Part shown: positions 11,461 through 64,000 of the stretch, piece after piece
How positions within the stretch are numbered: the first letter of the stretch is position 1
Layout of the letters: every line of letters begins with the position of its first letter
Origin: Alphaproteobacteria bacterium
GTDB lineage: Bacteria; Pseudomonadota; Alphaproteobacteria; Micropepsales; Micropepsaceae
Assembly: GCA_016783965.1 (NCBI GenBank)
Contig: JADHVO010000011.1
Span: 4,229 to 68,228 of the forward strand
Direction of reading: 5' to 3'
DNA: 64,000 bases
Position numbers and translations under genes: made by a program
Notes under the pieces: model-generated
The model's database searches: none
Told to the model about the DNA's origin: nothing
What the model saw: only the letters and a program-made list of their open reading frames with translations

Positions 11461-11534
11461 CGTGGTGCCTGTGCGGAAGATGTGCTTCGCGCGCGCCGTC
11501 AGAGAAGGGTGATTTGCCGGTTGCATGACACGCA

Positions 11535-11565: not shown

Positions 11566-11628
11566 CACGAAAGTTTTCTTGCCCATAAACAACGGCTTTT
11601 CTATGAGTATGAGAGGGTGGGCTTAACG

Positions 11629-46428: not shown

Positions 46429-47037
46429 ATGCACATGATGAACTCGCTGACCGAGAAAGTTTTGAGCTATGTGGAAACGCAGCCAGAGGGTACGCCTCTG
46501 ACAGCGAAGGGGCTACTGCATCTGTCCAACCGCGCGGCCATTGATCAAACACTCTCTCGGCTCGCGAGAAACGGCCGCGTCTTGCGCGTTGGACGCGGTC
46601 TCTATGTTCGGCCCGTAGCAACGAAATTTGGTCCCAGAGCTCCATTTCCGGAGAAGCTGATCGAAGGAATTGCACGCACGAGCGGAGAAACGATTGTGTC
46701 GAGTGGAGCTACGGCAGCAAACGAACTTGGCCTGACGACACAAGTACCGGTTAGGACCGTCTATCTAACTTCGGGCCGCAGTCGCAGGCTATCGCTCGGC
46801 AAGCAGTCCATCGAACTTCGGCATGCAAGTTCGCGAAGCCTTGCGAAGCCAACCGAGAGAGCAGGGCAGGCAGCCCGGGCCCTTACTTGGCTTGGGCCGC
46901 GGGAAGCGAGGCGCGCCCTATCGGTGCTAACCCATCGGTTGGAGCCGCGAGAATTGGAAGAGTTGCAGGCTATGCGCCCCGTTTTGCCTGGATGGCTAGC
47001 CCAAACCGTGAGCACACTAGTGCCAACGAATGGCTGA
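46429..47037 (+). CDS. abiEi: AbiEi-family type IV antitoxin / transcriptional regulator
   Basis: N-terminal wHTH-like region (LTAKGLLHLSNRAAIDQTLSRLARNGRVLRVGRGLY). C-terminal GATAANELGLTTQVP. 8-nt overlap with abiEii. The start is probably ATG 46435. Confidence 0.8.
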   Translation: MHMMNSLTEKVLSYVETQPEGTPLTAKGLLHLSNRAAIDQTLSRLARNGRVLRVGRGLYVRPVATKFGPRAPFPEKLIEGIARTSGETIVSSGATAANELGLTTQVPVRTVYLTSGRSRRLSLGKQSIELRHASSRSLAKPTERAGQAARALTWLGPREARRALSVLTHRLEPRELEELQAMRPVLPGWLAQTVSTLVPTNG

Positions 47038-48070
47038 GAGCTATTTTACGCTCTCCGCCCAGGAAAAACAGGATGCGCTAGCTGTCGCACAGACTGCACT
47101 CGGGCGTCCGCTCCACCTTCTTGAGAAAGACATCTGGGTGGTGTGGACGCTCGAGCAGCTCTTTGCCTCGCCCTTCGCTGAGCACATGGTCTTCAAAGGA
47201 GGAACATCGCTCTCAAAGGCCTATCACGCGATCGATCGCTTCTCGGAAGACATCGATATCACCTACGACATCCGTACCATTGCAGGCGACCTCACCAAGC
47301 AAACCACGGACGGATGGCCGAAGTCTCGAAGCCAACAGGAACGATGGACTGATGAGATCAGAAAGCGCCTCGCTGATTGGGTGAAATCCACAGCGCTTCC
47401 CTATTTCGAAGCCAAGCTCTTGGAGATCGATCCGGAAGCAAAAGTCACCGCCGAAAACGACACGCTCGTCATCACCTATATCGCGGTTGGAACCGGAACT
47501 GGATATGTGGCCCCGCGAGTCAAAATCGAATTTGGCGCTCGCTCGACCGGGGAACCGTCTGAGTTGCGTGAGATCGTGGCCGACGCCGCGATCCTGCTGA
47601 AAGAGATCGATTTTCCACGGTGCAATGCGCGCACAATGCGCGCGGAACGAACCTTCTGGGAAAAAGCGACGGCCGTGCACGTCTTTTGCCTTCAAGGCAA
47701 ACTCGGCGGCGACCGCTATTCCCGTCATTGGTACGATTTGGTCCAACTGGATCGGGCAGGCGTCGCCACCAAAGCCATCGGCGCTCCCGATCTCGCAAGG
47801 AACGTCGCTGACCACAAAGCCATCTTTTTTCGGGAGAAAGATGCCGAGGGCAATGTCATCGACTATCTCGCGGCGGTCACGGGACAGCTGAAGCTCGTGC
47901 CCTCGGGAGAGGGCAGGGCAATCCTCGAAGCGGACTACGGAAAGATGCTTGAGGACGGCCTTCTTCCCGACGGAGCCACGCCATTTGCCGTGCTCATGGA
48001 CGCCTGCGCCGATCTTGAAAAACGAGCGAATGCTCCCGCCACCGGAGAAAAAGAGAAAATATCGAAGTAA
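47030..48070 (+). CDS. abiEii: AbiEii/AbiGii nucleotidyltransferase toxin
   Basis: LEKDIWVVW...MVFKGGTSLSKAY...RFSEDIDITYD (NTase GS...DxD motif). Confidence 0.9.
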   Translation: MAESYFTLSAQEKQDALAVAQTALGRPLHLLEKDIWVVWTLEQLFASPFAEHMVFKGGTSLSKAYHAIDRFSEDIDITYDIRTIAGDLTKQTTDGWPKSRSQQERWTDEIRKRLADWVKSTALPYFEAKLLEIDPEAKVTAENDTLVITYIAVGTGTGYVAPRVKIEFGARSTGEPSELREIVADAAILLKEIDFPRCNARTMRAERTFWEKATAVHVFCLQGKLGGDRYSRHWYDLVQLDRAGVATKAIGAPDLARNVADHKAIFFREKDAEGNVIDYLAAVTGQLKLVPSGEGRAILEADYGKMLEDGLLPDGATPFAVLMDACADLEKRANAPATGEKEKISK

Positions 48071-48142: not shown

Positions 48143-50803
48143 TTGGAGCCCACTGCGCGCCGCACAATCGTCGTCGAGGGACCGCTGGCCTATCACAGGC
48201 GTCGGCTTGCGGCTGCGCGCAAGAGCGAGGCCGGGGTTCAAATTCTCGCAATGCCCCACATCGCGGCACGGCTTGCCGGCGGATTTCAGCGTCCCGCGCG
48301 GGGCCAGGATCTCGACGCGGCAATTCGCAACGCGCTCAGGGTAGGGACCTTCGAAGATATCGGCCGCATGCAGGAATTGCCGGGGATGCCCCGTGCGATT
48401 GCACGCGCGCTGACCAAGCTGTGGCTGGCAGACGCCGATATCAGCGAAGCGGCAAAGCGCCATGGTCGATTGCGCGACCTCCTAATTGTCGAACGGCTGG
48501 TGCGCGAGACGTTGCCTGCTGGCGCCCTGACCATTCGTGATCTACGCGATGCGGCGCTGGCGCGTGTTGTCCATGCGCGCACTGTGCTCGGTGACATTGA
48601 GCTTGACCTGCGAGGCGATGTCGCGCCGCTCTGGCGGCAACTGATACTCGGCCTCACGAGAAACGTCGGCGTGACTTGGCGCGAGCTTTCGACGGCCGCG
48701 AGCTGGTTTCCCGGTGAGACGGTCGACGCAGAGCCCACAGCAGCCCCGCCGCCATCCGTGCGCGTTTCATGCGCAAATCCACGATCAGAAGCGATTGAAG
48801 CGCTGCGCTGGATGCGCGAACTCCTAGCAAAGGGTGTGCCCCCAGCCGAGATCGCCATTTCCGCAACAAGTACGGAAACGTGGGACGAGCATTTCGATGC
48901 TCTCTCTATGGAGTCGGCGCTTCCGCTTCACTTCTCTCACGGTCGCGGCGGCCTCGCGACCTATGACGGCCAAACATGCGCGGCCCTTGCCGATGTGCTG
49001 ATCCAGGGCCTCAATCAACGGCGCGTCCGGCGTTTATTTCGTTACGCGCGGCGAAGTAAAGGTCTCGAAGGCTTGCTTCCGAGCTGGAGCCGGCCGCTCA
49101 GAAGAGATGCGGCACTCCTGAGCGTGCAACATTGGCAGCATGCACTCGATCAAATTTCTCTCGGCGAGGGTGAGATCGATCCACGCCCTATTGTCATGCC
49201 GATCATCACACTGCTCGCGCGCGGCCCTGAAGTGGCCGAAGAAGCCGGTGCGCTTCTCCTTGAGAAGAGAGCGCGAGCGCTCTGGACAGACGCTCTGCGG
49301 CGGGCGCCCGCAAGCGCGTTGCTCCTATCCCTTGAAGAGTTGCGTCTTCCGGATCGGCGCGACCCCGGTGCATCTGTCGTCTGGTGCCCGGCCCATCATC
49401 TTGCGGAGGCGCCTCGAGCATATGTTCGCCTGCTTGGCCTCAACGCACGTAGCTGGCCGCGGCGCGGGAGCGAGGACCCAATCCTCCCAAGCCATATGGT
49501 CAGTGGCGGCATGCTTGATCCAACATGGATCACGCAGCAGGATCGCGAGCATTTCCGGATCATCCTCGGGCGCGCGAGCAAGGCATTGATCCTGTCGCGG
49601 AGCCGGCGCGATGCGCAGGGCAAGACCTTGCCGCCGAGCTCGCTCGTCGCGCAGAGCAGCGGAGCCGAGCTTGAACTGAAGCGGACAAGAAGTCCCTCTC
49701 ACGCCTTCGGCGAGGGCGACAGGCTCCTCGCAAGGCCCGAAGAAGCCGCGACGTTGCCGCAAATCAATTCGGCAAGTCTCTGCTGGCAGAACCGGCAGAG
49801 CAGGGCGGTCACGGCCCATGACGGCCAGGTGAGAGAAGATCATCCGCTTGTGTTGCGCGCCCTCGGCCGCGTGCAATCGGCGACGTCTCTTAAGGCGCTC
49901 CTTCGAGATCCGCTCGGATTTGTCTGGCGTTATGGTCTTCGCTGGTCAGCCCCGGCCCTTGATAACCAGCCGCTGCGCCTTGAGCCGCGGGTCTACGGCG
50001 AACTCGTCCACGACATTCTGAAACACGCGGTTCTCGCGCTTGAGCCAGCGCCCGGATTTCGCCAGGCGGACCCACAGCAAATCCAGGCAGCCATTGAGGA
50101 AGCCCGCGTCCTCATCCGACAGAAGTGGCCGCTGGAAAAACCGGTTCCACCCGGGATGCTTTGGGATCATACGCTCGCGCGGGCAGCCGATCTGGCCAAT
50201 ATGGCGCTTGGGCTCGATCCACGTATTACGGCCGGATCGCAAAGCTGGCCTGAGGCCCTCTTCGGGCAAGCAGAGGCTTCAGGCGCGCACACAGACCTGC
50301 CTTGGCCCGTCGATGTCCCTGTGCCCATCCCCGGCACCGACGTAACCGTCAACGGCAAGATCGATCGCCTCGATATTCGCATCGACGATACTCGTCGCGC
50401 AGCGCAGGTCACCGACTATAAGACCGGCAAGCCGGCGGCGGCAGGCATAATCCTCAACGGTGGCCGCGAACTACAGAGGGTCACCTATGTTCTGGCGGTT
50501 AGACATCTGCGGCCCGACATCACCGCGTGGCAGGCACGGCTCGTCTATCTTACCGATGAGGGCCCGAGCACGGACAGGCTCGTAAATATCGATGGCGCTA
50601 TAGGCACCCTAACGCAGAACGTTACCGCAGCGAGTGCACTGGTCAGGCGCGGCATAACACTGCCTGGAGAGGATGCGGAAGACGACACCTATGATTTGCG
50701 TCTTGCGCATCCCGCGTCGCGACGTGTGTATTTCGAGGCTAAGCGAAACGCGATAGGGCGCGTTCTTGGCGCAACTTTTGTGGAGTCGTGGGCATGCCCC
50801 TAG
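48143..50803 (+). CDS. AddB-like PD-(D/E)xK nuclease subunit (no Walker A)
   Basis: 886 aa. The C-terminal RecB-type nuclease motif is VNGKIDRLDI...QVTDYKTGK...QRVTY. No GxxGxGKT motif and no obvious 4-Cys cluster. Confidence 0.8.
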   Translation: MEPTARRTIVVEGPLAYHRRRLAAARKSEAGVQILAMPHIAARLAGGFQRPARGQDLDAAIRNALRVGTFEDIGRMQELPGMPRAIARALTKLWLADADISEAAKRHGRLRDLLIVERLVRETLPAGALTIRDLRDAALARVVHARTVLGDIELDLRGDVAPLWRQLILGLTRNVGVTWRELSTAASWFPGETVDAEPTAAPPPSVRVSCANPRSEAIEALRWMRELLAKGVPPAEIAISATSTETWDEHFDALSMESALPLHFSHGRGGLATYDGQTCAALADVLIQGLNQRRVRRLFRYARRSKGLEGLLPSWSRPLRRDAALLSVQHWQHALDQISLGEGEIDPRPIVMPIITLLARGPEVAEEAGALLLEKRARALWTDALRRAPASALLLSLEELRLPDRRDPGASVVWCPAHHLAEAPRAYVRLLGLNARSWPRRGSEDPILPSHMVSGGMLDPTWITQQDREHFRIILGRASKALILSRSRRDAQGKTLPPSSLVAQSSGAELELKRTRSPSHAFGEGDRLLARPEEAATLPQINSASLCWQNRQSRAVTAHDGQVREDHPLVLRALGRVQSATSLKALLRDPLGFVWRYGLRWSAPALDNQPLRLEPRVYGELVHDILKHAVLALEPAPGFRQADPQQIQAAIEEARVLIRQKWPLEKPVPPGMLWDHTLARAADLANMALGLDPRITAGSQSWPEALFGQAEASGAHTDLPWPVDVPVPIPGTDVTVNGKIDRLDIRIDDTRRAAQVTDYKTGKPAAAGIILNGGRELQRVTYVLAVRHLRPDITAWQARLVYLTDEGPSTDRLVNIDGAIGTLTQNVTAASALVRRGITLPGEDAEDDTYDLRLAHPASRRVYFEAKRNAIGRVLGATFVESWACP

Positions 50804-53800: not shown

Positions 53801-54120
53801 AGCTCGCCGCGACGGTACGCCGAACACTTCTTTTGCCCGAAATTAAGCGCCTCCGGCCCCGGCTGATCCCGGAATACCCGGTTTATGGAGCGCCCGATAA
53901 GTGGACGGCTGTTTCAGGCCGCATCGATGCGATCGCACCTGAAGATGAAGGCGCTGTTGTTGTCGACTGGAAGAGCGACATCGCCCCTTCTGAGGGCGAC
54001 ATCCAGGAACATCTCAGACAAACCAAGGACTATTGCGAAATGGTTGGCGCCCGGACGGGCCTCGTCGTTTACATGTCCACCGGCAAGATATTCCGCTTCG
54101 ATACCGGCGAGGCTCCTTAG
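50788..54120 (+). CDS. AddA-like UvrD/Rep-family helicase with a C-terminal PD-(D/E)xK nuclease
   Basis: EAGAGTGKT, DEFQDTD, VGDPKQSIYRFRGAD, TIHSAKGLEWPVV and the C-terminal GRIDAIAPEDEGAVVVDWKSD. Overlaps the upstream gene by 10-16 nt. Confidence 0.9.
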   Translation: MGMPLDDLRDAPARIRALTDHTSTLLVEAGAGTGKTALMAGRIVMLLAAGADPREIAAITFTELAASALDARVHRYITWLRAGRIPETLRLALPDGALSDPQKSALAKVAPHLDQLTIATIHSFCQTLISSYAVEASIDPGARMLDADQAGTFFDNVFDTWIKGRFSRTPQPDDPIAALSRDDPRRVVDRLRQFAEFRRRHREARTFDDDLEGRPDIELNEAIAAFRRWANSLPRAPQKTTRLLTDLEKLAPFFKDSFATKPDFARLWHLAHEVPVIECMGYQGAWKQAELEWPPQEAEWSMASRTDGARLHAEAKALFDAVDQCYRSIMGRIATATMARLARDLDEIIAAYDHAKRAAAVLDFDDLLIKARALVRGHEAVRQALARRYRYLFVDEFQDTDQIQAEVIFAIGAESLGAGWHQNRLREGALFLVGDPKQSIYRFRGADLGCYCKARDAINGAHPGNVLKISENFRSREDILTFVNDRFGPLFRGTGLDYEDLTSTRVPPVHNLPVVSRLPINADGRKKESLRRAEAEAVADLCARLIGNIEVREGEGTRPLKPGDIALLSPGWTDLWRYEHALESRGLPIATQAGKGFFGRQEVQDLLSLARTLADPRDYLAFGALMRGPLIGLKDEELLDIVERLPPSLDEPGAIPRFSLMTPTEEVADHALAQATLEILKSLQRKAMSTTPGLLLTEAIERLNIRAIVTARDTRDSGRAVANLELFLERARGYRVRGLGQFVQDVTREWSERNNAQVEGQIDADGSAINLITIHSAKGLEWPVVIPVNMCSGFGQRPRLLHRPADDTLHWVIDDVAPPSVFDARRSIEAENECERQRMWYVTCTRAEELLIVPDIPRLRYQSWSGLVELNVGALPSFPLESLPTQPRLAIDEPTNHQTKETFDREFAAIAAKSVETNWVQPSSHDEDRAELVEALLMAPEEAVDALEPVGGGKIRGLALHKMMEEILTGEVQDEETALATRARVLLGELGSEAEEGAELPEPAELAATVRRTLLLPEIKRLRPRLIPEYPVYGAPDKWTAVSGRIDAIAPEDEGAVVVDWKSDIAPSEGDIQEHLRQTKDYCEMVGARTGLVVYMSTGKIFRFDTGEAP

Positions 54121-54146
54121 AGGACTGAAGCCGCCTTCGCGCGCCT

Positions 54147-54677
54147 TTAGCTTGCTTGGCCGAACACGTTCAGGAGCCGGATGTTCATGGCCTGCAGGCT
54201 CACCTTATAGCGCTTGGCGAGATCCGCGACGGCATCGGCATCTTCGATATCGATGAAACGGTCCGCGACGTCGCGCTCAAGGAATTTGCGTGGCATCAAG
54301 ATCGAAGAACCAAAGTAATTGGCTTCGACTTCCTCGGTGTCCGTTCCTGTCGATGAGAGCGAGGAGCGCAGGTCCATCCGAAACGACTTGTCGTAATGCA
54401 CGGGTTGGCCTTCGTGCAGCAGGAAATGCCCGAATTCATGGGCCAGGGTAAAGCGCTGGCGGTTCTCGGCCTGGGTACTGTTAACGCCTATGAGGACTGA
54501 GTCTCCATCCCGCACGATCATCCCCGAGATGTCCTTCAGGTCGATCTTCCGGATGGTAACGCCTTTGGCTTTAATCATCTTATCGATCGGGACCGGCGCG
54601 TCCTTGACGGCATGATCCGTCAGAAGTTCATCGATGATCTTGTCGATCCGGGCGTATCGCGGGCGAAGCGGTGTCAT
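54147..54677 (-). CDS. ImmA/IrrE-family zinc metallopeptidase (CapP-like)
   Basis: 176 aa with the HEFGHFLLHEG (HExxH) motif. ATGA overlap with the upstream XRE gene. Confidence 0.85.
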   Translation of the reverse strand: MTPLRPRYARIDKIIDELLTDHAVKDAPVPIDKMIKAKGVTIRKIDLKDISGMIVRDGDSVLIGVNSTQAENRQRFTLAHEFGHFLLHEGQPVHYDKSFRMDLRSSLSSTGTDTEEVEANYFGSSILMPRKFLERDVADRFIDIEDADAVADLAKRYKVSLQAMNIRLLNVFGQAS

Positions 54678-54994
54678 GGACGCGCCCTCTTCGGCCCGGC
54701 CTTGCGCAGCTCAGCTACGAGCTTCTGCACTTCCGGCGGAACGACCTGAGCCGGCTCAGCATGCGCCGCGCTGGCGGCTGCAAGCCCTTCCAGCAGTTCG
54801 CCACTGTTCGTTTTCAGAGCCGCAGCAAAGTCGAGCAGCTGGTGAACCAGCATCTGCTGACGGCCGCGTTCGACATTGGTGATCGACGTGCGCGAGAGGC
54901 CCACCAGATTCGCAAGCTTGTCCTGCGTGAGCCCAACGCGCTCACGGCGCGCGCGAATGTTCTTTCCAAGTTTGACGTAGATCGGCTGGGCCAT
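54674..54994 (-). CDS. XRE-family HTH repressor (CapH-like)
   Basis: LGKNIRARRERVGLTQDKLANLVGLSRTSITNVERGRQ. Divergent from the Ubl operon. Confidence 0.85.
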   Translation of the reverse strand: MAQPIYVKLGKNIRARRERVGLTQDKLANLVGLSRTSITNVERGRQQMLVHQLLDFAAALKTNSGELLEGLAAASAAHAEPAQVVPPEVQKLVAELRKAGPKRARP

Positions 54995-55138
54995 TTGGGA
55001 TCGCGGGTGCGGGTGGCGGATGAGAACAAGTCATAAACAAAATATATGTCGACGTCAACAATACAAACATTGCGCCCGCCTGCCATCCCGCCAGCGTATG
55101 TCATCAATACTGACAGTATATTCTTATGTTCGCATTTC

Positions 55139-55167
55139 TTGACACGCGGGCCGGTCTCCTGTAGTTA
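55139..55167 (+). promoter_or_regulatory. sigma-70-like promoter of the Ubl operon
   Basis: TTGACA(55139)-17 nt-TAGTTA(55162). AAGGAG Shine-Dalgarno at 55228. The palindrome ATACTG-A-CAGTAT at 55107-55119 lies just upstream. Confidence 0.4.
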
Positions 55168-55241
55168 GATGCTGCGCCGTTCTTGGTGGCGCGCATCTCA
55201 AGGCCGGTTCCGTCCGGCGAACTGGTCAAGGAGACCGAACA

Positions 55242-55661
55242 ATGAGTGAGAACAAGGAAGTCCAGCCCGAGGGCGAAAAGCCGCTCTGCGTCGAGCTGAA
55301 GGAAGCGCGTCACGAACTGGAGGAGGGCATCGCCGAAGAGCGCCGCGGCGAGACCCGCATCGAGGCGGCGGAGCATCGCATCGAGCAGATCGTCGAGGAG
55401 CTCGAGAAGGAGTCGCGCATCAAGGTCAACGGGCGCACCCGCACGATCGAGGGCCATGTCGCCTGCTTCGATCAGGTCGTGAAGTTCGCCTACCCGAACG
55501 GCCCGACCAAGCCCAACACGAAGTTCACCGTCACCTACCGCGACGCAGCGGAGGTGCCGCCGACCGGTGAGCTCGACCAGAACCAGTGCGTGCGCGTGAA
55601 GAAGGGTTGCGACCCCATGGAGGAGACGAGCTTCAATGTCACCGAAACTGTTCTCTCGTAA
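55242..55661 (+). CDS. multiubiquitin-domain (beta-grasp) protein with an N-terminal coiled coil
   Basis: 139 aa. IKVNGRTRTIEGHVACFDQVVKFAY...FTVTYRDA matches my recollection of the Multi_ubiq pattern. The C-terminus is ...TETVLS, with no terminal GG. Confidence 0.65.
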   Translation: MSENKEVQPEGEKPLCVELKEARHELEEGIAEERRGETRIEAAEHRIEQIVEELEKESRIKVNGRTRTIEGHVACFDQVVKFAYPNGPTKPNTKFTVTYRDAAEVPPTGELDQNQCVRVKKGCDPMEETSFNVTETVLS

Positions 55662-56823
55662 CCCCGACCTTCAGCGTCTCCGCGACGACGGCTACTTCGT
55701 GCAGATCGTTGACGACGACAAGTTCCTCGTGATGCGCGAGGTTCCCTACGTCAACGATCGGCGCGAAGTGAAGCTCGGCACGCTCGTCACGGCGCTCGAA
55801 CTTGCCGGCGACATCACGAAGAAGCCCGTGCCGACGCACGTCGTGATGTTCGATGGCGATTACCCCTGCGACGCGAACGGCAAGGTCATGAATCTCGGCG
55901 GTCCGGGCGACCGCCGAGAGGTCGCTCCCGGCCTCTTCGTGCGTCACAGCTTCTCGCAGAAGCCGGACGGCGGCTATGCCGACTACTACGCGAAGATGAC
56001 CACCTACCACGCCATGCTTGCGGCGCCTGCGCGCGTGGTTGACCCCGAGATCAAGCCGCGGCAGTTCGCGGCGCCGGCCGACAGCGATCCGGAGTCGATC
56101 TTCGAATATCCCGACACGGCCTCGGGCCGCACCGGCACGGCGGCGTTGGCGGCGCTGTTCAAGAGCGAGATCATCGCGCTCATCGGTCTCGGCGGGACGG
56201 GAGCCTACATTCTCGACAAGGTGGCGAAGACGCCGGTTCGTGAGATCCGCCTCTTCGACGCCGACGAGTTCCTGAACCACAACGCGTTCCGCGCGCCGGG
56301 GGCGGCTTCGCTGGAGGAACTCCGCCTGGCACCCCTGAAGGTCGACTATTTCAAGGCGATCTACTCGCGCATGCATCGCGGCATCACGGCCCATCCGGTG
56401 ATGCAGGGACCGAAGCACGTCCATCTGCTCGACGGCGTGACCTTCGCGTTCATCGCCATGGATGACGGGCCGGAGAAGGAGGCTGTGATCAACAAGCTCG
56501 AAGCCATCGGCGCGTCCTTCATCGACGTCGGAATGGGCCTCTCGCTTGATGAACTGTCGCTTGGCGGCATCCTGCGGGTCACGGCCTCGACGCCCGCGCA
56601 CCGCGAGGTCGTTCGGCGCCATGTCTCCTTCGCCGAGAAGGGGGAGGGCGGCGTCTACGAGTCGAACATCCAGGTCGCCGATCTCAACAGCCTCAACGCC
56701 GACTTCGCCGTCATCAAGTGGAAGAAGATGCGCGGCTACTACCGCGACCTCGAGAAGGAGCTGCACAGCACCTACACGACCGACGGCAACTTCATCGTCA
56801 ACCGTGACCGGGACCGCGGATGA
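55636..56823 (+). CDS. prokaryotic E2-like domain fused to a ThiF/E1-like adenylyltransferase
   Basis: 395 aa. The N-terminal domain has DGDYPC(78)D. The ThiF Rossmann region is IALIGLGGTGAYILDKVAKTPVREIRLFDADEF..HN. The gene overlaps both neighbours. Confidence 0.85.
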   Translation: MSPKLFSRNPDLQRLRDDGYFVQIVDDDKFLVMREVPYVNDRREVKLGTLVTALELAGDITKKPVPTHVVMFDGDYPCDANGKVMNLGGPGDRREVAPGLFVRHSFSQKPDGGYADYYAKMTTYHAMLAAPARVVDPEIKPRQFAAPADSDPESIFEYPDTASGRTGTAALAALFKSEIIALIGLGGTGAYILDKVAKTPVREIRLFDADEFLNHNAFRAPGAASLEELRLAPLKVDYFKAIYSRMHRGITAHPVMQGPKHVHLLDGVTFAFIAMDDGPEKEAVINKLEAIGASFIDVGMGLSLDELSLGGILRVTASTPAHREVVRRHVSFAEKGEGGVYESNIQVADLNSLNADFAVIKWKKMRGYYRDLEKELHSTYTTDGNFIVNRDRDRG

Positions 56824-57251
56824 TCCAGGTCAAGCAGCTCACCCACCGTTTCGTCGAAGACATGCCGGAGGTGCTCGACCCCGGCGTGCTCTACGTCTCG
56901 ATGCGCTATGCCCTTGCCCTGCACCTGTGCTGCTGCGGCTGCGGCCGCGAGGTCTCGACGCCGTTCTCGCCGGCGCAATGGAAGCTGTTGTTCGACGGCG
57001 ACACGGTCTCGCTGTCGCCGTCTGTCGGGAACTGGAACCTGCCGTGCCGGTCGCACTATTTCCATGATCGCGGCAAGGTCATCGAGTCGTATTCCTGGTC
57101 CGAGAAGGACGTCGTCCGCGGCCAGAAGCGCGATCGCCGCGCGCGCGACAGCTACTATGGCAAGGACATGGCCCCGGACGTCCACGCCGCCCCATCAAGC
57201 AAGCCTGACCATCGCACCTGGCGGACCTGGATTGCGGGGCTGTTCGACTGA
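56820..57251 (+). CDS. DUF6527-like Cys/His protein (CxxC...CxxH zinc-ribbon or treble-clef candidate)
   Basis: 143 aa. HLCCCGCG (C38-x2-C41) and PCRSHYFH (C76-x2-H79, H82). ATGA overlap with the E1 gene. Confidence 0.6.
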   Translation: MIQVKQLTHRFVEDMPEVLDPGVLYVSMRYALALHLCCCGCGREVSTPFSPAQWKLLFDGDTVSLSPSVGNWNLPCRSHYFHDRGKVIESYSWSEKDVVRGQKRDRRARDSYYGKDMAPDVHAAPSSKPDHRTWRTWIAGLFD

Positions 57252-57414
57252 CGAGCCGTAGGGCGTCAGTCATTGCATGCGCAGCCGATGCACGTGGCGC
57301 GCTACTGACTCTATATAGTGTCGAGCTTCTCGGACCGGAAATTAATGCCTCAAATCAGTGTGATACCGATTTTAGGAGATTGATCAGTTCCTACATGCTA
57401 GGCATGGTGCGACC

Positions 57415-57810
57415 ATGCTGAAGGCCATTCTCCGCCGGCTCGCTGTAGCCATTCTGGGTGTTGCGGTTTTGACCGCGACCACGCCGTCGTTTGCGGCGAT
57501 GGAATGCTGCGATCACATGAAGCGGGGGGCGATGTCGGAGACGCAAGTGTCCGACATGCAAGCCATGCCCGACATGACAAGCATGAACGGCATGACGCAC
57601 CAGTCGGACGCCGACCAGGGCAACGAGATGCCGTGCAAGATGCCCGCCAGCGCCTGCGTCTCGGCCTGTGCGCCGATGATGGCCGCATCTATGACCGGCA
57701 TCGCGTTTCCTTCCTCCGAGATTGCCGGGAAGCTTAGCCCCGGTATTGCCGCGCCGCTCAGCGGCATTGCAAGGCCGCCGGACCTAGAGCCTCCGATTCT
57801 CTCCGCCTGA
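57415..57810 (+). CDS. secreted Met/Cys/His-rich small protein (metal-binding candidate)
   Basis: Signal peptide ...TPSFAA, then MECCDHMKRGAM...MQAMPDMTSMNGMTH...MPCKMPASACVSACAPMM. Confidence 0.55.
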   Translation: MLKAILRRLAVAILGVAVLTATTPSFAAMECCDHMKRGAMSETQVSDMQAMPDMTSMNGMTHQSDADQGNEMPCKMPASACVSACAPMMAASMTGIAFPSSEIAGKLSPGIAAPLSGIARPPDLEPPILSA

Positions 57811-57980
57811 TACGCGCTAACGCGGCTGCATCGCGGCCCTGCGCATGAATCTGTCTGCACTGTGACCGTTGCACGGGCGCTCTGACGCGTCCGCAGTCCG
57901 GCATCACATCCGCGGCAGTTTCTCAAAAATCAACGCGAACAATGAGCCGCGCCGCCATCGGCGCGGCAGGAGAGAACCAT

Positions 57981-58331
57981 ATGAAGACTTTCACGAAACT
58001 GCTCTTTGCAGGCGGCGCAGCGCTTTTGCTCACCGCATGCCAGAGCGTCGCGGCGCCGGACGACTACAAGTTCGAACGCGTTGCCGGCACCGGCCCCCTG
58101 TCGGTGCGGCTCGTCCGCGCCGACGAAACCCCCGTCGCCGGAGCGAAGCTCTTTCTCGAGCGCCGCGGCTTCACCGGGCCCAAGAGCCAGAACCTTGTGC
58201 AAGAGGTGCCGCTCTCCGTGGCTGGCGACGGCACGTTCGAGATCGACGGCGACCACGCCGGGGAACGGCTGAATCTCGCCGCGCATTTACCCGACGGCTC
58301 GGTCATCCACGGCCACATCAATGTGCCGTGA
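57981..58331 (+). CDS. small lipoprotein
   Basis: Start MKTFTKLLFAGGAALLLTAC (lipobox) after an AGGAGAG Shine-Dalgarno. The track ORF starts earlier, at 57942. Confidence 0.5.
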   Translation: MKTFTKLLFAGGAALLLTACQSVAAPDDYKFERVAGTGPLSVRLVRADETPVAGAKLFLERRGFTGPKSQNLVQEVPLSVAGDGTFEIDGDHAGERLNLAAHLPDGSVIHGHINVP

Positions 58332-58378
58332 CGCTCAGCCTCAACCCGACACCCACCAACCAACCCAAGGAGATCATC

Positions 58379-58828
58379 ATGCGTAACACAACCCGAGCCA
58401 TCGTCTTCACAGCCATCCTCTCCACCTTTCCGACAGCGCTCTTTGCGGCGGATCCGATGGCGGGCATGCCGATGGGCACGGCACCCATGGCGGCCATGCA
58501 GACCTACCGCTTTGAGCTGGCGTCACCCATTGAAGCGAAGGACGGCAAGAGCATCGTCTCAATCCGCCTCGTCCATGTCGCCGACAAGAAGCCTGTTACC
58601 GGCGCGCTCATCATCCAGAGCCGCGCCGACATGGGCCCGATCGGCATGGCGGCAATGACGGCGCCGATCAAGGCGCTGCCCGCAACGGTACCGGGCGTGT
58701 ACCCGTTCGAGATTGCGAACGGCGGCGTCTGGAACAAGTCAGCGAAATGGGCCCTGACCTTCGCCGCAAAAGTGCAAGGGGAGGCTGCGACGGTGCGCGG
58801 AAGCGTCATCGTCGAGCTGACACCATGA
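58379..58828 (+). CDS. periplasmic protein with a Met-rich N-terminus upstream of cusC
   Basis: ATG 58379 follows an AAGGAG Shine-Dalgarno. Signal peptide, then DPMAGMPMGTAPMAAM. ATGA overlap with cusC. The 319-aa track ORF 57869-58828 is over-extended. Confidence 0.55.
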   Translation: MRNTTRAIVFTAILSTFPTALFAADPMAGMPMGTAPMAAMQTYRFELASPIEAKDGKSIVSIRLVHVADKKPVTGALIIQSRADMGPIGMAAMTAPIKALPATVPGVYPFEIANGGVWNKSAKWALTFAAKVQGEAATVRGSVIVELTP

Positions 58829-60108
58829 CGGGACACATGCAAAAGGACGGCGGCGCTCTGCGCCGCCGTTTCCCGCTTTTTCTCTCGGTCGCCGTCGCAG
58901 GTGTGATGCTGTCCGCAAATCTCTTTGCAGCGGAAACGGCACCCCCACCACCCGGCGCGACGCTTGAGAGCCTCTTGGAGGTCGCCCACCGCCTGAGCCC
59001 CACGCTCAAGGCGGCTGCACTTGAGACGAGTGCTGCGGCCGCGCGGGCCGACCGGGCCGATGCGCTTGATGATCCGACCCTTAGCCTGCAAACGATGCAG
59101 GTGCCCGGACATATGGCCGGCATGGATCAGACGACGATCCTTCTGCAACAGGAATTCCCGCTCTGGGGAAAGCGCGACCTGCGCAAGTCCGCTGCGCTTG
59201 CCATGCTCGACGCCGCTCGTGGCGATGAGAAGGCGACAGCTGCCGAGCTCGACGAGAAAATCGCGCTCGCCTTTGCGGCCTACTGGAAGGCGACACGCGG
59301 GCTCGCGATCAATGTCGAGGCGACGCAAGTCGCCGCTGACATGGTGAAGATCACGCGCACGCGCTTCAGCCAGGGTGTCGCGACCTCGGCTGATCTGCTC
59401 TCAACAGAGGCGGACGCAACGCGTGCCGCGCTAGAGCGCGTGCGGTTCGAGCGTGAACGTCGCACAGCCATTGCTCAGATCAATCTCCTCCTTGCGCGGC
59501 CGGCATCGGCAACGCTTTCAGAGCCTCGGGGGCTACAGCCGCTGCCAACGCCTCTCCCCATGATCGAGGCGCTCATGGATCGGGCCAGAACGACCAATCC
59601 GGTCCTCCTTGCTGGGGCGGCGCGGGTGCGCAGCGCCGAGGCAGAAGAAGAGCTTGCGCGGAAGAGCTGGTATCCCGACCTCACGGTAGGTGCCGGTCCC
59701 CAGACCAATTTCGGAGCATGGGGCTACGCCGCATCGATCGGGATCAAGATTCCACTCCAGCGCGGCGCCAAGGAGTCCGGTGAAGCGGAGGCGGCAGCCA
59801 GCCTGGGCGCAGCCCGCGCGCGCCTCGCCGCTTCGGAAGCCGAGCTCGAGGGCGACCTCACCTCTGCGCTGGCTGCGCTCGAGGCGGCCGAAGCGATGGA
59901 TACGGCGCGGCGCGGAACACTTGCGCCGGAGGCCACGGCGTTCTACCGCGCGGCTTTGGCCGAATACGCAAGCGGGCGCGGCGATCTCATCTCGACGCTC
60001 GATGCGGTGCACCGGCTGCATCAGAGCGAGCTCGAGCTGCTCGATACCGAAATGGAAGGCCAGGCGGCTCTGGCGCGCATCGAACGGCTTCTGGGAGCAC
60101 GGCTATGA
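58825..60108 (+). CDS. cusC: outer-membrane efflux protein (TolC family), CusC-like
   Basis: Signal peptide, then OEP repeats. Start at internal ATG 58825. Confidence 0.9.
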   Translation: MTGHMQKDGGALRRRFPLFLSVAVAGVMLSANLFAAETAPPPPGATLESLLEVAHRLSPTLKAAALETSAAAARADRADALDDPTLSLQTMQVPGHMAGMDQTTILLQQEFPLWGKRDLRKSAALAMLDAARGDEKATAAELDEKIALAFAAYWKATRGLAINVEATQVAADMVKITRTRFSQGVATSADLLSTEADATRAALERVRFERERRTAIAQINLLLARPASATLSEPRGLQPLPTPLPMIEALMDRARTTNPVLLAGAARVRSAEAEEELARKSWYPDLTVGAGPQTNFGAWGYAASIGIKIPLQRGAKESGEAEAAASLGAARARLAASEAELEGDLTSALAALEAAEAMDTARRGTLAPEATAFYRAALAEYASGRGDLISTLDAVHRLHQSELELLDTEMEGQAALARIERLLGARL

Positions 60109-61385
60109 ATATCACACGCAACGGGGTCATCGCCCTTGTCATCGTCGCCGCCTTGTTTGGCGCCACCGGATACTTCCTCGGCCACGGCACGACAGCGTCT
60201 TCTTCGCCGGCACCAATGGCCTCTGCGCCACAGCCGGCAGCGACGGGAGGCAAGGGCCGCGTCCTCTACTACCGTAACCCGATGGGGCTTCCCGATACCT
60301 CGCCCGCGCCAAAGAAGGACGCGATGGGGATGGACTACGTCCCCGTCTATGAGAACGAGGCCGGCGGCGATGCGGGCGTTGTGACAGTCGATCCGGCACG
60401 CGTGCAGATGCTCGGCGTCCGGACGGAAACCGTAACGCCGCGCCAGGCGATCAACAGGTCTGTTCGCGCCGCCGGGACGGTCGCGTTTGACGAGCGACGC
60501 CTCGCTGCGGTGACGACGAAAGTCGCGGGCTGGATAGAGAAACTCAACGTCGCTGCAACCGGCGAGGCGGTGCGACAGGGACAACCTCTTCTCGAGATTT
60601 ACTCGCCCGAGATCGTCGCTGCCGAGCAGGAATATCTCGTCGTCGCCTCGACACATCTCGGGGGCAAGGATGACGCCTTGATGTTGGATGCGGCTCTTAG
60701 TCGGTTGCGCGTGCTCGACGTGCCGGCCGGCGAGATTGCCCGACTGCAAAGGACGGGCAGGGCAACAAGACGCATTGCGGTCCTCGCACCCGCGAACGGG
60801 GTTGTTACTGAGAAGACCGCTGTCCTTGGAGCCCATGTCGACGCGGGGGCGCCGCTCTATAAGACCGCCGATCTGTCGACGGTCTGGCTGATCGCCGAGG
60901 TACAGGAGCAGGATCTAGGTCTCGTCCGCGTGGGGCAGAAGGCGGCCGCAAATTTCGTCGCCTTCCCGGGACGAAGCTTCGAAGGGCGGGTGGATTTCAT
61001 TTATCCGGTTCTCTCAAGCGACACCAGGACGGCAAAGGTCCGCATCACCATGCCGAATACCGATCTCCTGCTGCGCTCAGAGATGTACGCAAGTGTGGCG
61101 ATCGAAGCGCCCGCCAGCACTAGCACTGTGTCTGTCTTGTCCGTGTCGGACTCGGCGATCATCGACAGCGGCGCGCGGCAGATCGTGCTGGTGGCGAAGG
61201 GGCAGGGGCGCTTTGAGCCGCGCGTCGTCAAGCTTGGCGCCCGCGGCGAGGGCTACACCGAGGTCCTTAGCGGCCTGCAGGCCGGCGAGAGCGTCGTTAC
61301 GAGTGCCAATTTCCTCATCGATGCGGAAAGCAATTTGCGCGCGGCGCTGCAAGCCTTCACCTCGGGACAAGGAGTAAAGCCGTGA
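60105..61385 (+). CDS. cusB: RND periplasmic adaptor, CusB-like
   Basis: YYRNPMGLPDTSPAPKKDAMGMDYVPVY is a typical CusB N-terminus. Followed by lipoyl/beta-barrel regions. Confidence 0.9.
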   Translation: MNITRNGVIALVIVAALFGATGYFLGHGTTASSSPAPMASAPQPAATGGKGRVLYYRNPMGLPDTSPAPKKDAMGMDYVPVYENEAGGDAGVVTVDPARVQMLGVRTETVTPRQAINRSVRAAGTVAFDERRLAAVTTKVAGWIEKLNVAATGEAVRQGQPLLEIYSPEIVAAEQEYLVVASTHLGGKDDALMLDAALSRLRVLDVPAGEIARLQRTGRATRRIAVLAPANGVVTEKTAVLGAHVDAGAPLYKTADLSTVWLIAEVQEQDLGLVRVGQKAAANFVAFPGRSFEGRVDFIYPVLSSDTRTAKVRITMPNTDLLLRSEMYASVAIEAPASTSTVSVLSVSDSAIIDSGARQIVLVAKGQGRFEPRVVKLGARGEGYTEVLSGLQAGESVVTSANFLIDAESNLRAALQAFTSGQGVKP

Positions 61386-64000
61386 TCGCTCGCATCATTG
61401 CGCTCTCGGCGCGCAACACCCTCTTTGTGCTACTGGCAACGGCGCTCATCGTCGTCGCTGGGCTCTACGCCGTTCTTGCGACCCCGCTTGACGCCATTCC
61501 CGACCTCTCCGACCCGCAAGTCATCGTCTTTACGGAAGTCCCGGGCCAGGCTCCCCAAGTAGTCGAGGATCAGGTCACCTATCCGCTGACGACAGCGCTT
61601 CTCGCTGTGCCGAAGTCGAAGGTCGTGCGCGGCTTCTCTTTTTTCGGCGTGTCCTTCGTCTACGTCGTGTTCGAGGACGGCACGGACATCTATTGGGCGC
61701 GGAGCCGCGTGCTTGAATACCTGAACTTTGCCCAGAAACGCTTGCCGGCGGGTGTAACGCCGTCACTGGGCCCCGATGCCACTGGTGTCGGCTGGGTTTA
61801 TGAGTATGTCGTGATCGGCGCGCAGAAGACGCTCGCCGAGCTGCGCTCCATCCAGGATTGGTTCATCCGCTACCAACTGACCAAGGCGGGCGGCGTTGCG
61901 GAGGTCGCGAGCGTCGGCGGGTTCGTGAAGCAATATCAGGTCGTCGTCGACCCGGTGAAGCTGCGGGCCTACGGGATTTCTCTTCAGAAGATCACCGACG
62001 CTATTCGCGCGAGCAATGCCGATGTGGGCGGCAGTTCCATCGAGCTCACCGAGCGCGAATACATGGTGCGCGGCCGCGGCTATCTGAAGGGTGCCGGCGA
62101 TCTTGAAAAGGTCGTCCTCAAGGCAAACGGGGGAACACCCGTTCTTCTCTCCGATGTTGCCCGTATCGAGATCGGCCCTGACGAACGGCGCGGGCTCACG
62201 GAACTCAATGGCCAGGGCGAAGTCGCGGCTGGCATTGTGCTGCAACGCGATGGCGAGAACGCGCTCTCCGTCATCAAGAACGTCAAGGAGAAGATCGCTG
62301 AGCTCGCAGCCGGGCTGCCGCAAGGTGTCTCGATTCTGCCGGTCTACGATCGCTCGAACCTGATCCTGCGGGCGATCGATACGCTGAAGCACACTCTTGT
62401 CGAAGAAAGCATCATCATCGGGTTCGTTTGCCTCATTTTTCTCCTTCATGCGCGCAGTGCGCTGGTCGCGATCATGATGCTGCCCGTCGGCGTCCTGATC
62501 GCCTTCCTCATCATGCATGCGCTCGGCATCAGCTCGAACATCATGAGCCTTGGCGGCATCGCGATCGCGATCGGCGCCATGGTCGATGCAGCGATTGTCA
62601 TGATCGAGAACGCCCATAAGCGATTAGAGAAGGCGGGACTAGGTGAAAGCCGGGTCGATGTGCTCGTGAAGGCCGCGACGGAAGTGGGTCCTGCGCTGTT
62701 CTTCAGCCTCCTCGTCATCACGGTCTCATTCTTGCCGGTGTTCACGCTGGAAGCGCAGGAGGGCCGACTCTTCAAGCCGTTGGTCTACACATACACCTTC
62801 TCGCTCGCTGCGGCGGCGCTGCTGTCCGTCACGCTGGTGCCGGTCCTCATGACGCTCTTCGTTCGCGGGCGCATTATGCCGGAGCAGAAAAATCCGGTGA
62901 ACCGCGCGCTGATCTGGGCCTACCGGCCTGTCATTGACGCGGTTCTGCACTACCGGAAGCTCACGATCTCGCTGGCGCTCGCCATTCTTGCCATATCGAT
63001 CTACCCAGTCTTGCGGATCGGCAGCGAGTTCATGCCGACCCTCAACGAAGGCACGTTGCTCTATATGCCTGTGAGCCTGCCCAGCATGTCGATCACGAAA
63101 GCCAGCGAGCTCATCCAGATCCAGGACAAGATCATCAAGAGCTTCCCGGAGGTCGAGAGCGTCTTCGGCAAAGCCGGCCGCGCCAATAGCGCAACCGACC
63201 CCGCGCCCGTCGAGATGTTCGAGACGGTCATCAACCTCAAGCCGGAGGAGAGCTGGCCTGTCGGTATGACGATCGACAAGTTGATCTCCGACATGAATGC
63301 CGCTCTACAGTTCCCCGGTGTGAGCAATGCCTGGACCATGCCGATCAAGGCGCGCATCGACATGCTCTCGACCGGCATCCGCACGCCGGTCGGGGTCAAA
63401 CTCTACGGCAACGATCTCAAAGAGCTCGACCGGCTTTCGGGGCAGATCGAAGCGGTAATCCGGAAGGTTCCGGGCACGACCAGCGCTTTCGCGGAACGTG
63501 TGCTCGGCGGCTATTACGTCAACATCGAGCCCGATCGCGCGGCGCTCGCCCGCTACGGTCTCAGCGTCGACGATGTGCAGAACACCGTGCGGACGGCCCT
63601 TGGCGGCGAAATGGTGACGGAAACCGTCGAAGGGCGTGAGCGCTACAGCGTCAATGTCCGCTATCCGCGCGACCTGCGTTCCGACCCGCGTGCGATCGCA
63701 AGCGAGGTATTGGTGAGCGCCATGGACGGCGCCTCGATTCCGCTCGGTCAGCTGGCCTCCATCGCGGTCACTCAAGGCCCGCCATCAATTCGGACCGAGA
63801 ATGCCCAACTGGTCGACTATATCTATGTCGATCTGCAGGGCCGGGACCTGGGCGGATATGTCAGCGACGCGCGCAAGGCGGTTGCCGACCAAGTGCGGCT
63901 GCCTCCGGGCTACCATGTCGAATGGAGCGGGCAGTTCGAATATCTTGAGCGCGCCTCGGCAAAGCTCAAGACCGTCATTCCGGCCACGCTCTTTCTTATA
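61382..64000 (+). CDS. cusA: Cu(I)/Ag(I) efflux RND permease CusA (3' end beyond the window)
   Basis: Missing from the ORF track because no stop falls in the window. My translation from GTG 61382 (GTGA overlap with cusB) reads VIARIIALSARNTLFVLLATALIVV...DAIPDLSDPQVIVFTE...GGIAIAIGAMVDAAIVMIEN, the CusA-type TM4 signature. Confidence 0.95.
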   Translation, partial: MIARIIALSARNTLFVLLATALIVVAGLYAVLATPLDAIPDLSDPQVIVFTEVPGQAPQVVEDQVTYPLTTALLAVPKSKVVRGFSFFGVSFVYVVFEDGTDIYWARSRVLEYLNFAQKRLPAGVTPSLGPDATGVGWVYEYVVIGAQKTLAELRSIQDWFIRYQLTKAGGVAEVASVGGFVKQYQVVVDPVKLRAYGISLQKITDAIRASNADVGGSSIELTEREYMVRGRGYLKGAGDLEKVVLKANGGTPVLLSDVARIEIGPDERRGLTELNGQGEVAAGIVLQRDGENALSVIKNVKEKIAELAAGLPQGVSILPVYDRSNLILRAIDTLKHTLVEESIIIGFVCLIFLLHARSALVAIMMLPVGVLIAFLIMHALGISSNIMSLGGIAIAIGAMVDAAIVMIENAHKRLEKAGLGESRVDVLVKAATEVGPALFFSLLVITVSFLPVFTLEAQEGRLFKPLVYTYTFSLAAAALLSVTLVPVLMTLFVRGRIMPEQKNPVNRALIWAYRPVIDAVLHYRKLTISLALAILAISIYPVLRIGSEFMPTLNEGTLLYMPVSLPSMSITKASELIQIQDKIIKSFPEVESVFGKAGRANSATDPAPVEMFETVINLKPEESWPVGMTIDKLISDMNAALQFPGVSNAWTMPIKARIDMLSTGIRTPVGVKLYGNDLKELDRLSGQIEAVIRKVPGTTSAFAERVLGGYYVNIEPDRAALARYGLSVDDVQNTVRTALGGEMVTETVEGRERYSVNVRYPRDLRSDPRAIASEVLVSAMDGASIPLGQLASIAVTQGPPSIRTENAQLVDYIYVDLQGRDLGGYVSDARKAVADQVRLPPGYHVEWSGQFEYLERASAKLKTVIPATLFLI

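Follow-up and report, generated by a model that had tools for sequence, protein, structure and literature searches.

The stretch of DNA analysed here (the window, 64 kb; all coordinates are given on its numbering) comes from contig JADHVO010000011.1 of an alphaproteobacterium of the family Micropepsaceae. It carries three overlapping genes for a ubiquitin-like protein (Ubl), an E2-E1 fusion, and a Cys/His protein, with a divergent pair of genes for an XRE-family repressor and an M78 metallopeptidase upstream. An open reading frame (ORF) check of the window and a check of the junctions recovered all five genes, their couplings, and the 247-bp divergent gap as the initial annotation of this DNA had placed them. 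The features of the locus are as follows.

54147-54677, minus strand: gene for a short M78 (ImmA/IrrE/CapP-like) zinc metallopeptidase, 176 amino acids (aa) (Pfam, PADLOC)
54674-54994, minus strand: gene for an XRE-family helix-turn-helix (HTH) repressor (CapH/ImmR-like), 106 aa (Pfam, PADLOC, PDB matches)
54995-55241: divergent control region, 247 bp, with a candidate operator and promoter-like elements
55242-55661, plus strand: bubA, ubiquitin-like protein, 139 aa (Multi_ubiq)
55636-56823, plus strand: bubBD, E2-like (DUF6791) plus E1 fusion, 395 aa (Pfam, NCBIfam)
56820-57251, plus strand: bubE, DUF6527 Cys/His protein, a Ser-His protease by homology, 143 aa (Pfam)

The stop codon of the XRE gene overlaps the start of the peptidase gene as ATGA, an ATGA overlap also joins bubBD to bubE, and bubA overlaps bubBD by 26 nucleotides (nt). 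Searches with hidden Markov models (HMMs) matched all five proteins, to Multi_ubiq, DUF6791 with a weak ThiF match, DUF6527, HTH_31, and Peptidase_M78, respectively, when listed from bubA to bubE and then from the repressor to the peptidase. An inverted repeat, CTGACG-N10-CGTCAG, lies at 57248-57269, across the bubE stop; it is a possible terminator hairpin that has no T-run and was not called by the scan.

We conclude that the locus is very probably a plasmid-borne type II Bub operon (BubA/BubBD/BubE) with a divergent XRE and M78 switch upstream, its conjugation chemistry being assigned by homology. Bub refers to bacterial ubiquitination-like operons, known earlier as 6E or DUF6527 systems, of which type II (formerly 6E.2) consists of BubA (the Ubl), BubBD (an E2-E1 fusion), and BubE (DUF6527) and typically lacks a JAB peptidase (Ye et al., bioRxiv 10.1101/2024.11.21.623953). 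The locus shares with the type II operons of Ye et al. the same three genes in the same order, the absence of JAB, an E2-like plus E1 fusion with a Ser, Lys, His, Arg, and Tyr signature, a DUF6527 protein that carries both the C4 zinc site and the Ser-His dyad, a divergent HTH plus peptidase regulator upstream, and a location on a mobile element. The present analysis itself establishes which genes these are, their catalytic-residue signatures, that the module is conserved, and that it lies on a plasmid. The initial annotation had regarded the operon as a three-gene variant with no defined function and no role for its Cys/His protein; this claim of novelty is out of date because the family has been defined biochemically by Ye et al. 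and Gong et al., with BubE as a Ser-His protease. The work of Ye, Gong, Chambers, and Corbett is cited as Nat Struct Mol Biol 2026 (in PMC13373217) and that of Gong et al. as Structure 2025. Public annotation already uses the Bub terms, since the precomputed Pfam label of PF20137 is "BubE" and RefSeq names one E. coli homologue "ubiquitination-like system serine protease family protein." The locus thus adds one member to a published family, of a kind already described, and is distinguished by a minimal BubA, a regulator peptidase that is short and devoid of a GAF domain, and an AddAB-like gene pair that abuts the module. It also lies on an alphaproteobacterial plasmid, whereas the examples studied experimentally come from E. 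coli and Citrobacter. It is compact and naturally plasmid-borne, its minimal BubA has a single domain, and its ImmA-like regulator is likewise minimal, so that it could become a tractable model in alphaproteobacteria.

BubA matches Multi_ubiq (PF14452) at E=1.2e-8, with 35.4 bits against a cutoff of 24.5, over residues 59-122, and weakly matches the structure of E. coli ZDHYS365 BubA (9CD2). The protein consists of a charged helical segment at about residues 14-57 and one beta-grasp domain at about residues 59-139. Its first 58 residues, the putative coiled coil of the initial annotation, contain 19 Glu and are highly charged, with hydrophobic residues at heptad-like spacing, and this segment is conserved among short BubAs, an alignment of which also places a 6-residue insertion ahead of the last beta-strand in the subclade of the window protein. 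The literature on Bub systems records Ubls that combine a single beta-grasp with an N-terminal coiled coil as a rare class; BubA of the locus would have this rare form, with a charged N-terminal helix (CC-Ubl1), whereas the common form is the three-domain Ubl3. The sequence ends in TETVLS, with Ser139 as the last residue and no GG, which upholds the earlier description of the first gene as a beta-grasp, multiubiquitin-like protein without a C-terminal GG. A C-terminal Ser was found in 80/80 of the species-representative genome loci that we used for all counts of core conservation, within the motif F-N-V-[TSG]-x-T-x-x-S, and the E. coli homologue ends likewise; the lack of GG is therefore a family trait. 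The overlap of the two genes is constant as well, bubA ending exactly 26 nt into bubBD in each of these 80 loci. The preprint text, as far as it is accessible, mentions only the C-terminal Gly of type I BubA and does not discuss the C-terminal Ser of type II.

BubBD matches DUF6791 (E=7e-49, residues 10-161), gives a weak ThiF match in Pfam, and belongs to the NCBIfam family PRK06153 (E=3.8e-171). The conservation of its residues was scored in 148 full-length representatives with 36-60% identity to the window protein, with the following result.

Residues 10-161: E2-like domain
Residues ~167-395: E1 adenylation domain
His68: E2-like site, 148/148
Ser107: E2-like site, in the motif F-S-x-K-P, 144/148
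Lys109: E2-like site, 130/148
Gly184, Gly186, Gly187, and Gly189: Gly loop (GLGGTGAY) of the ATP site, essentially invariant
Asp208: adenylation, invariant
Arg219: adenylation, 148/148
Tyr341: E1 crossover loop, 148/148
Cys78: no role assigned, 101/148 (68%)

The GLGGTGAY motif is thus the invariant nucleotide-binding Gly loop that it had been taken for. Cys78, which had been put forward as the catalytic residue of the E2-like domain, is the sole cysteine of the window BubBD, and we reject it for this role: it is kept in just 101/148 representatives, the column holding His, Tyr, Arg, Phe, or Ser elsewhere, versus 97-100% for Ser107, His68, Arg219, and Tyr341. The set conserved in its stead is Ser107, His68, Lys109, and Tyr341. 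In the crossover loop (columns 319-348), Cys occurs in at most 2/148 sequences at any column. The numbering of Ser107, Arg219, and Tyr341 nearly coincides with that of S106, R219, and Y342 in E. coli, the homologue of which has the same motifs. In vitro, ATP-dependent covalent conjugates arise from the type II BubA and BubBD proteins of E. coli and are abolished by the R219A, Y342F, and S106A substitutions (Ye et al., bioRxiv 10.1101/2024.11.21.623953). The residue signature of the window protein thus matches the published Ser/Tyr oxyester mechanism rather than cysteine chemistry, and the targets for mutation would be Ser107 and Tyr341 instead of Cys78. Two of the 148 representatives carry Cys at the column of Ser107 and may be natural thioester-type variants.

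The AlphaFold2 (AF2) model of BubBD (pLDDT 72) has Citrobacter BubCD as its best PDB matches (E~3e-12), followed by UBA5, PaaA, MccB, and ThiF, with MccB, PaaA, ThiF, and TcdA at E~1e-8. Searches with this full-length model are dominated by the E1 domain, and the N-terminal domain was modelled and searched separately. In its isolated model (pLDDT 79, pTM 0.73), the secondary-structure elements follow one another in a UBC-like order, and its assignment as an E2 domain follows, by analogy, that of Ye et al.

BubE matches DUF6527 (PF20137) at E=8.7e-23. Among 75 unique homologues, C37, C39, C41, and C76, which correspond to the zinc site, and S68 and H79, which correspond to the dyad, are invariant, and their spacing is that of the Citrobacter residues C57/C59/C61/C99, S92, and H102. 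The CxxC...CxxH spacing noticed earlier in the third gene was retrieved as C38-x-x-C41 and C76-R-S-H79. Published work describes BubE as a conjugate-stripping protease with a Ser-His dyad and a C4 zinc site, and both conjugation and BubE cleavage have been demonstrated only for the E. coli ZDHYS365 and Citrobacter proteins (Ye et al., bioRxiv 10.1101/2024.11.21.623953).

The locus can be set apart from the related conjugation systems. Type I Bub operons (BubAB fusion, JAB-E1 BubCD, and BubE) resemble it in that the E1 fold of the window protein is nearest to solved BubCD, in the Tyr/Ser oxyester signature, and in BubE. In type I, however, JAB is fused to E1 and the Ubl-E2 fusion is cleaved to expose a C-terminal Gly, whereas in the locus E2 is fused to E1, JAB is absent, and BubA is a free protein that ends in Ser. 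Bil and CBASS (cyclic-oligonucleotide-based antiphage signaling system) are, like the locus, bacterial modules for E1/E2-based conjugation on defence islands with a peptidase as negative regulator. Bil, however, requires JAB, a separate E2, and an E1 of the IAD-AAD-CYS type, with catalytic cysteines in both enzymes, and CBASS conjugates a CD-NTase and has no Ubl; the locus has neither JAB nor CD-NTase nor a conserved catalytic Cys. No JAB/JAMM match was found in the five proteins with Pfam or in the precomputed Pfam annotation of the neighbourhood, and neither a CD-NTase nor a JAB gene occurs nearby in the ORF list or in that annotation. The Cap2-type E1-E2 models of PADLOC match the nucleotide-binding loop only, at E of at least 7e-5. 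A Bil reading and a type II CBASS reading were both rejected on these grounds, in agreement with the initial annotation, which had recognized a Ubl, E2-E1, and Cys/His protein operon that is neither Bil nor type II CBASS.

The module is well conserved beyond the window. BubA adjoins BubBD in 77 of the 80 loci, and BubE does in all 80. Relatives number more than 6,500 clusters at E<=1e-10 and, in a protein-level search, are present in 129 plasmid records, and a search of phage records found no sequenced phage with the gene. Megablast of the 3.1-kb locus against plasmids gave no match, relatives being found at the protein level only. Seven metagenomic contigs carry exactly the BubBD sequence of the window, in unchanged gene surroundings. 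In the nearest subclade (72-86% BubBD identity), every member examined has a short BubA of 118-158 aa and a divergent HTH/M78 regulator, with differing neighbours. The HTH and M78 genes are split in L086, L088, and L001 (L numbers denote comparison loci), as in the window. They are fused into one HTH-M78 gene (357-372 aa), followed by a DUF3368/PIN-like gene, in L090-L092, which belong to Bradyrhizobium, Devosia, and, in the case of L092, a metagenome. The coexistence of fused and split regulators in one Bub subclade shows that the regulator module was swapped or fused there. The flanks of relatives contain genes of defence and mobility, among them GmrSD, MmeI-type enzymes, NERD, AbiE, integrases, and toxin-antitoxin genes.

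The XRE protein matches HTH_31 (E=9.6e-12) and HTH_3 (E=7e-9) in Pfam and capH in PADLOC (E=1.5e-11), and its PDB matches are C.AhdI, P22 C2, and the HTH domain of CapH (7T5U). The peptidase matches Peptidase_M78 (E=2.2e-23) over residues 37-168 of its 176, with an HExxH motif at H79-E80-F-G-H83 and a third ligand region around E115. Its match to the capP model of PADLOC (E=2.7e-37) covers profile positions 3-153 of 242 only, and its alignment to the CapP structure 7T5T is limited to residues 79-180 of 291. The divergent XRE and HExxH ImmA-type pair in a CapH/CapP layout, which had been noticed from the sequence, is supported alike by Pfam, PADLOC, and gene order. As in CapH+CapP systems, an XRE-type HTH protein and an HExxH M78 peptidase lie upstream of and divergent from the operon that they would control, capH and capP are the best PADLOC matches, and a palindromic element is found in the shared promoter region; CapH+CapP adjoin 168/544 Bub operons, or 31% (Ye et al., bioRxiv 10.1101/2024.11.21.623953).

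The mechanism of CapP is less readily carried over than its layout. CapP comprises a peptidase domain (residues 1-141), an HTH-like domain (142-182), and a GAF domain (182-288); single-stranded DNA (ssDNA) binds in the groove between peptidase and GAF, the GAF domain contacts CapH, and a cysteine switch occurs in roughly one CapP in three (Lau et al. 2022, bioRxiv 10.1101/2022.04.27.489752; Calloji et al. 2026, PMC13228613). In contrast to this three-domain protein, the peptidase of the window has 176 aa and neither GAF domain nor cysteine, and a GAF-CapH contact is impossible. Since the ssDNA groove of CapP depends on the GAF domain, the DNA-damage trigger of CapP is not simply transferable to the window peptidase, and the earlier suggestion of a CapH/CapP-type de-repression after DNA damage stands as regards the layout and is uncertain as regards the mechanism. 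Judged from its sequence, the peptidase is closer to ImmA than to canonical CapP, within the class ImmR/ImmA-CapH/CapP-DdrO/IrrE. In ImmR/ImmA (ICEBs1, phage phi105) and DdrO/IrrE (Deinococcus), an XRE repressor is likewise cleaved by a cognate M78 metallopeptidase, and the pair of the window shares with ImmR/ImmA the small size and single-domain short M78 protein, the translational coupling of the genes, and the mobile element. These known pairs control element excision or DNA-repair regulons, whereas that of the locus adjoins a Ubl conjugation operon; IrrE, moreover, has a GAF domain, and sequence similarity is limited to the peptidase core.

The control region was compared with that of L086, a relative at 86% identity, and contains the following elements.

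55099-55115: candidate operator TGTCA-N7-TGACA, an inverted repeat conserved in L086 with spacer changes only
55107-55119: 13-nt palindrome ATACTGACAGTAT (ATACTG-A-CAGTAT), perfect and unique in the window
55139-55144, plus strand: -35-like TTGACA for bubA, with a weak -10 candidate, TAGTTA, at 55162-55167 and a Shine-Dalgarno sequence, AAGGAG, at 55228-55233
55058-55030, minus strand: near-consensus promoter-like TTGACG-17-TATGAC for the XRE-peptidase pair

The candidate operator overlaps the second copy of a direct repeat, GTCAnCAATAC (copies at 55054-55064 and 55100-55110), which is likewise conserved in L086. TGTCA-N7-TGACA has 2 matches in the 64 kb versus 0.03 expected, and GTCAnCAATAC has two occurrences in the window, both in the control region; the two patterns greatly exceed chance expectation in the window, though they were picked after seeing the sequence. 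We infer that the XRE repressor may bind at TGTCA-N7-TGACA and GTCAnCAATAC. The other match of the inverted repeat is at 43892-43908, inside an ORF (43233-44351) that has no Pfam match. The palindrome at 55107-55119, which had been singled out earlier, does exist and is unique in the window; it reads ATAGTGACAGTTA in L086 and was rejected as the operator, the inverted repeat that overlaps it being conserved instead. The -35 box CTTGACAC at 55138-55145 is conserved in L086 and partly in L088. On the minus strand, the aligned site of L086 is TTGACA-16-TATGAC, and that of the window fails the scan rule of a T at -10 position 6.

By homology with the characterized systems of E. coli and Citrobacter, from which the conjugation chemistry and the protease activity of BubE are carried over by analogy, we propose the following mechanism. 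The E1 domain of a BubBD dimer would adenylate the C-terminal carboxylate of BubA (that of Ser139, not of a Gly), and BubA would then move as an oxyester to Tyr341 of the crossover loop, next to Ser107 of the E2-like domain, with the aid of His68 and Lys109, and last to a lysine of a target protein. BubE, with its Ser68/His79 dyad and C4 zinc site, would cut BubA conjugates and hence restrain or reset the pathway. The XRE repressor, presumably bound to TGTCA-N7-TGACA/GTCAnCAATAC, would keep both divergent promoters off, and both would be released upon its cleavage by the co-translated M78 peptidase. The biological role would be defence against phages or mobile elements, or a DNA-damage stress response.

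Several observations weigh against this interpretation. An adenylated Ubl ending in Ser instead of Gly would be unusual. For the N-terminal domain of BubBD, no Foldseek match reached E<=1e-3 (UbcH7 and UbcH8 appeared at E 0.65-1.6), a 30-sequence profile found no match among PDB sequences, and a permissive Pfam scan retrieved DUF6791 only and no E2 family. Of the E2-E1 fusion first described, the E1 adenylation domain with its intact ATP site therefore stands, while no HMM names the N-terminal domain an E2. In the regulatory part, the peptidase has no GAF match in Pfam and no cysteine in its translation, the cysteine-switch loop being present without Cys in the alignment to 7T5T. The back-to-back sigma-70-like promoters of the initial annotation were not recovered either, since a sigma-70 consensus scan of 54000-57600 gave no site at threshold, near-consensus hexamers only being found on each strand. 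The literature to 2026 demonstrates phage protection for no Bub operon and names no conjugation target, and E. coli-based phage assays have so far given no Bub phenotype. Of the "inducible protein-conjugation defence module" on a plasmid that had been suggested for this locus, the plasmid and the conjugation family are borne out, and defence remains inferential.

The genes that adjoin the module offer a possible lead to its function. A pair of genes, identified with Pfam, ends 26 bp from the peptidase gene.

48143-50803, plus strand: AddB-like PD-(D/E)XK protein, 886 aa
50788-54120, plus strand: AddA-like UvrD helicase plus PD-(D/E)XK nuclease, 1110 aa

This AddAB-like pair recurs beside distant type II Bub operons in two gene orders, as full-length orthologues of 39-45% identity: the pair follows bubE directly in seven rhizobial loci (L018, L027, L028, L030, L032, L039, and L093/L094, the set including a Mesorhizobium plasmid), and it lies upstream of the Bub genes in L086. 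Furthermore, in 66 of the 80 loci, a same-strand gene of ~1130 aa that encodes an M78::UvrD::PD-(D/E)XK fusion ends ~81 nt upstream of bubA (for instance, L003:1743-5198 on the plus strand, L040:1791-5183, L033:2131-5538, and L094:7630-11028). The HExxH motif of the fusion is intact in 64/65 full-length copies, and its M78 catalytic residues align with those of the standalone window peptidase and are invariant in that alignment. In 69/80 loci, two small co-directional genes precede the fusion gene at fixed positions (~363-1217 and 1217-1792; L094:6196-7053 and 7050-7628), making up a six-gene cluster. The first (285 aa) has a weak sigma-70 region-4-type HTH match (Pfam E=1.7e-4, in L003) and is named "response regulator transcription factor" on the Mesorhizobium plasmid, and the second (192 aa) belongs to no family. 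The window contains neither the fusion gene nor homologues of the two small genes. Conversely, tblastn of the window XRE and M78 proteins against the 80 loci found no adjacent homologues, a different upstream module being present there. A survey of upstream regulators in the 80 loci, restricted to ORFs within 1.7 kb, was discarded as invalid: in this high-GC DNA it had picked antisense ORFs inside the 3.4-kb fusion gene, and the published figure of 31% was used.

The linkage between AddAB-like genes and Bub is suggestive, and the pair is possibly a component of the system. The accessible Bub and CapP literature, which includes Table S1 of the preprint and excludes the final published versions, does not mention a helicase or nuclease link. 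We tentatively propose, as an idea that is more probably wrong than right, that type II Bub is coupled to helicase-nuclease machines that serve as its trigger or conjugation target, the window being a "split" version in which the peptidase and XRE genes stand between the AddAB-like pair and Bub. If so, DNA-end processing on phage, plasmid, or damaged DNA, and not GAF-mediated ssDNA binding, would activate the peptidase and hence Bub expression. Bub would thereby gain a concrete upstream sensor, or the helicase-nuclease would be the target of conjugation; the linkage, if real, would show where trigger or target should be sought.

The same genes bear on whether the operon serves phage defence at all. 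It is conceivable, if rather unlikely, that Bub is instead a stress module for DNA damage or DNA-end processing, with the AddAB-like helicase-nuclease as the signal for the peptidase or as the target of BubA. The M78::UvrD::PD-(D/E)XK fusion in 66/80 loci with its HExxH motif intact in 64/65, the AddAB-like orthologues downstream of bubE in the seven rhizobial loci and upstream in L086, and the GAF-less peptidase of the window are in line with this view, as is the fact that no sequenced phage carries the gene, and the literature itself leaves "immunity or stress response" undecided. However, AddAB-like genes are absent within 6-8 kb in half of the eight members of the subclade that were examined (L001, L088, L090, and L091). 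The rhizobial plasmids may have a common origin, in which case the co-occurrences are not independent, and DUF6088/AbiE recurs there too. The AddAB-like occurrences are raw counts, and the link is one of gene position.

We consider it very improbable that the XRE and M78 genes form a switch of the ImmR/ImmA type that belongs to the plasmid or mobile element itself, is concerned with transfer, excision, or a toxin-antitoxin-like function, and lies by chance beside a constitutive Bub operon. ImmR/ImmA pairs do govern the induction of integrative and conjugative elements and prophages, the peptidase is ImmA-sized and has a repressor/antitoxin family as its best NCBIfam match, and the window is a mobilisable plasmid. 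Yet the pair, or a fused HTH-M78 gene, stays divergent beside bubA in relatives with wholly different flanks (on a chromosome and on other contigs, with or without AddAB), conservation extends to the operator-like elements and to the -35 box of bubA, and Ye et al. give the same layout for 31% of Bub operons.

Scarcely credible, finally, is a role in the synthesis of a small molecule or cofactor, in which the E1-like enzyme would modify the BubA C terminus in the manner of MccB or PaaA (cyclisation or nucleotide attachment) or load it with sulfur in that of ThiF or MoeB: the E1 model does match MccB, PaaA, ThiF, and TcdA at E~1e-8, the C-terminal Ser of BubA is unusual, and BubBD has no catalytic Cys, but structurally the model is matched best by the conjugation enzymes BubCD, the conjugates of E. 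coli type II BubA and BubBD need R219, Y342, and S106, the BubE protease is present in 80/80 loci, and no rhodanese, cysteine desulfurase, thiamine, or molybdopterin gene was found in any neighbourhood examined. On these grounds, the MccB-like reading was set aside, as was a ThiS/MoaD-ThiF/MoeB sulfur-carrier reading, for which BubA, lacking GG and ending in Ser, is also unsuited; the sulfur-carrier or cofactor context that would have spoken against a type II Bub operon is thus absent from the neighbourhoods examined.

The type II Bub operon of the window is carried by a mobilisable alphaproteobacterial repABC plasmid, of which the window is a part. This location, already proposed in the initial annotation, is supported by a complete repABC cassette, the MobA/MobL relaxase, and the TraG-type coupling protein, all within the window.

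19225-20991: ParB-like protein
29247-30632: TraG-type coupling protein (type IV coupling protein, T4CP)
32273-34567: MobA/MobL (TraA-type) relaxase-helicase
37767-39086: RepC (repABC)
39872-40930: RepB (repABC)
40927-42132: RepA (repABC)
47030-48070: AbiEii toxin gene, directly before the AddB-like gene

In L081, a contig identical to that of the window, a DUF6088 (AbiEi-like) gene is found just upstream of the AbiEii gene, and the Mesorhizobium plasmid (L094) has a DUF6088 gene ahead of its Bub cluster. L003-L008, which represent six genera or metagenome-assembled genomes (Xanthobacter, Bosea, Bradyrhizobium, and others), have identical tblastn coordinates and identities, which suggests a very recent horizontal transfer of one element. 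Downstream of the Bub operon, at L003:8136-11240, a 1034-aa fusion of a caspase-like domain (Peptidase_C14) with DEAD/Helicase_C has a defence-type look. In E. coli, 3/5,426 complete genomes matched in a distant-mode search with a Kluyvera operon, and megablast matched none. On the chromosome of E. coli ES2 (L089), the operon belongs to an island that adjoins tRNA-Leu and an integrase; bubA is immediately preceded by an IS1, in the place that the fusion gene takes elsewhere.

Heavy-metal resistance genes, for copper and cation efflux, are present at both ends of the window. Positions 2117-13055 encode a multicopper oxidase, an RND pump, a membrane-fusion protein, an outer-membrane factor, and a CDF transporter, and a YtkA/OEP/CusB-like copper-efflux cluster occupies 57400-64000, downstream of bubE.

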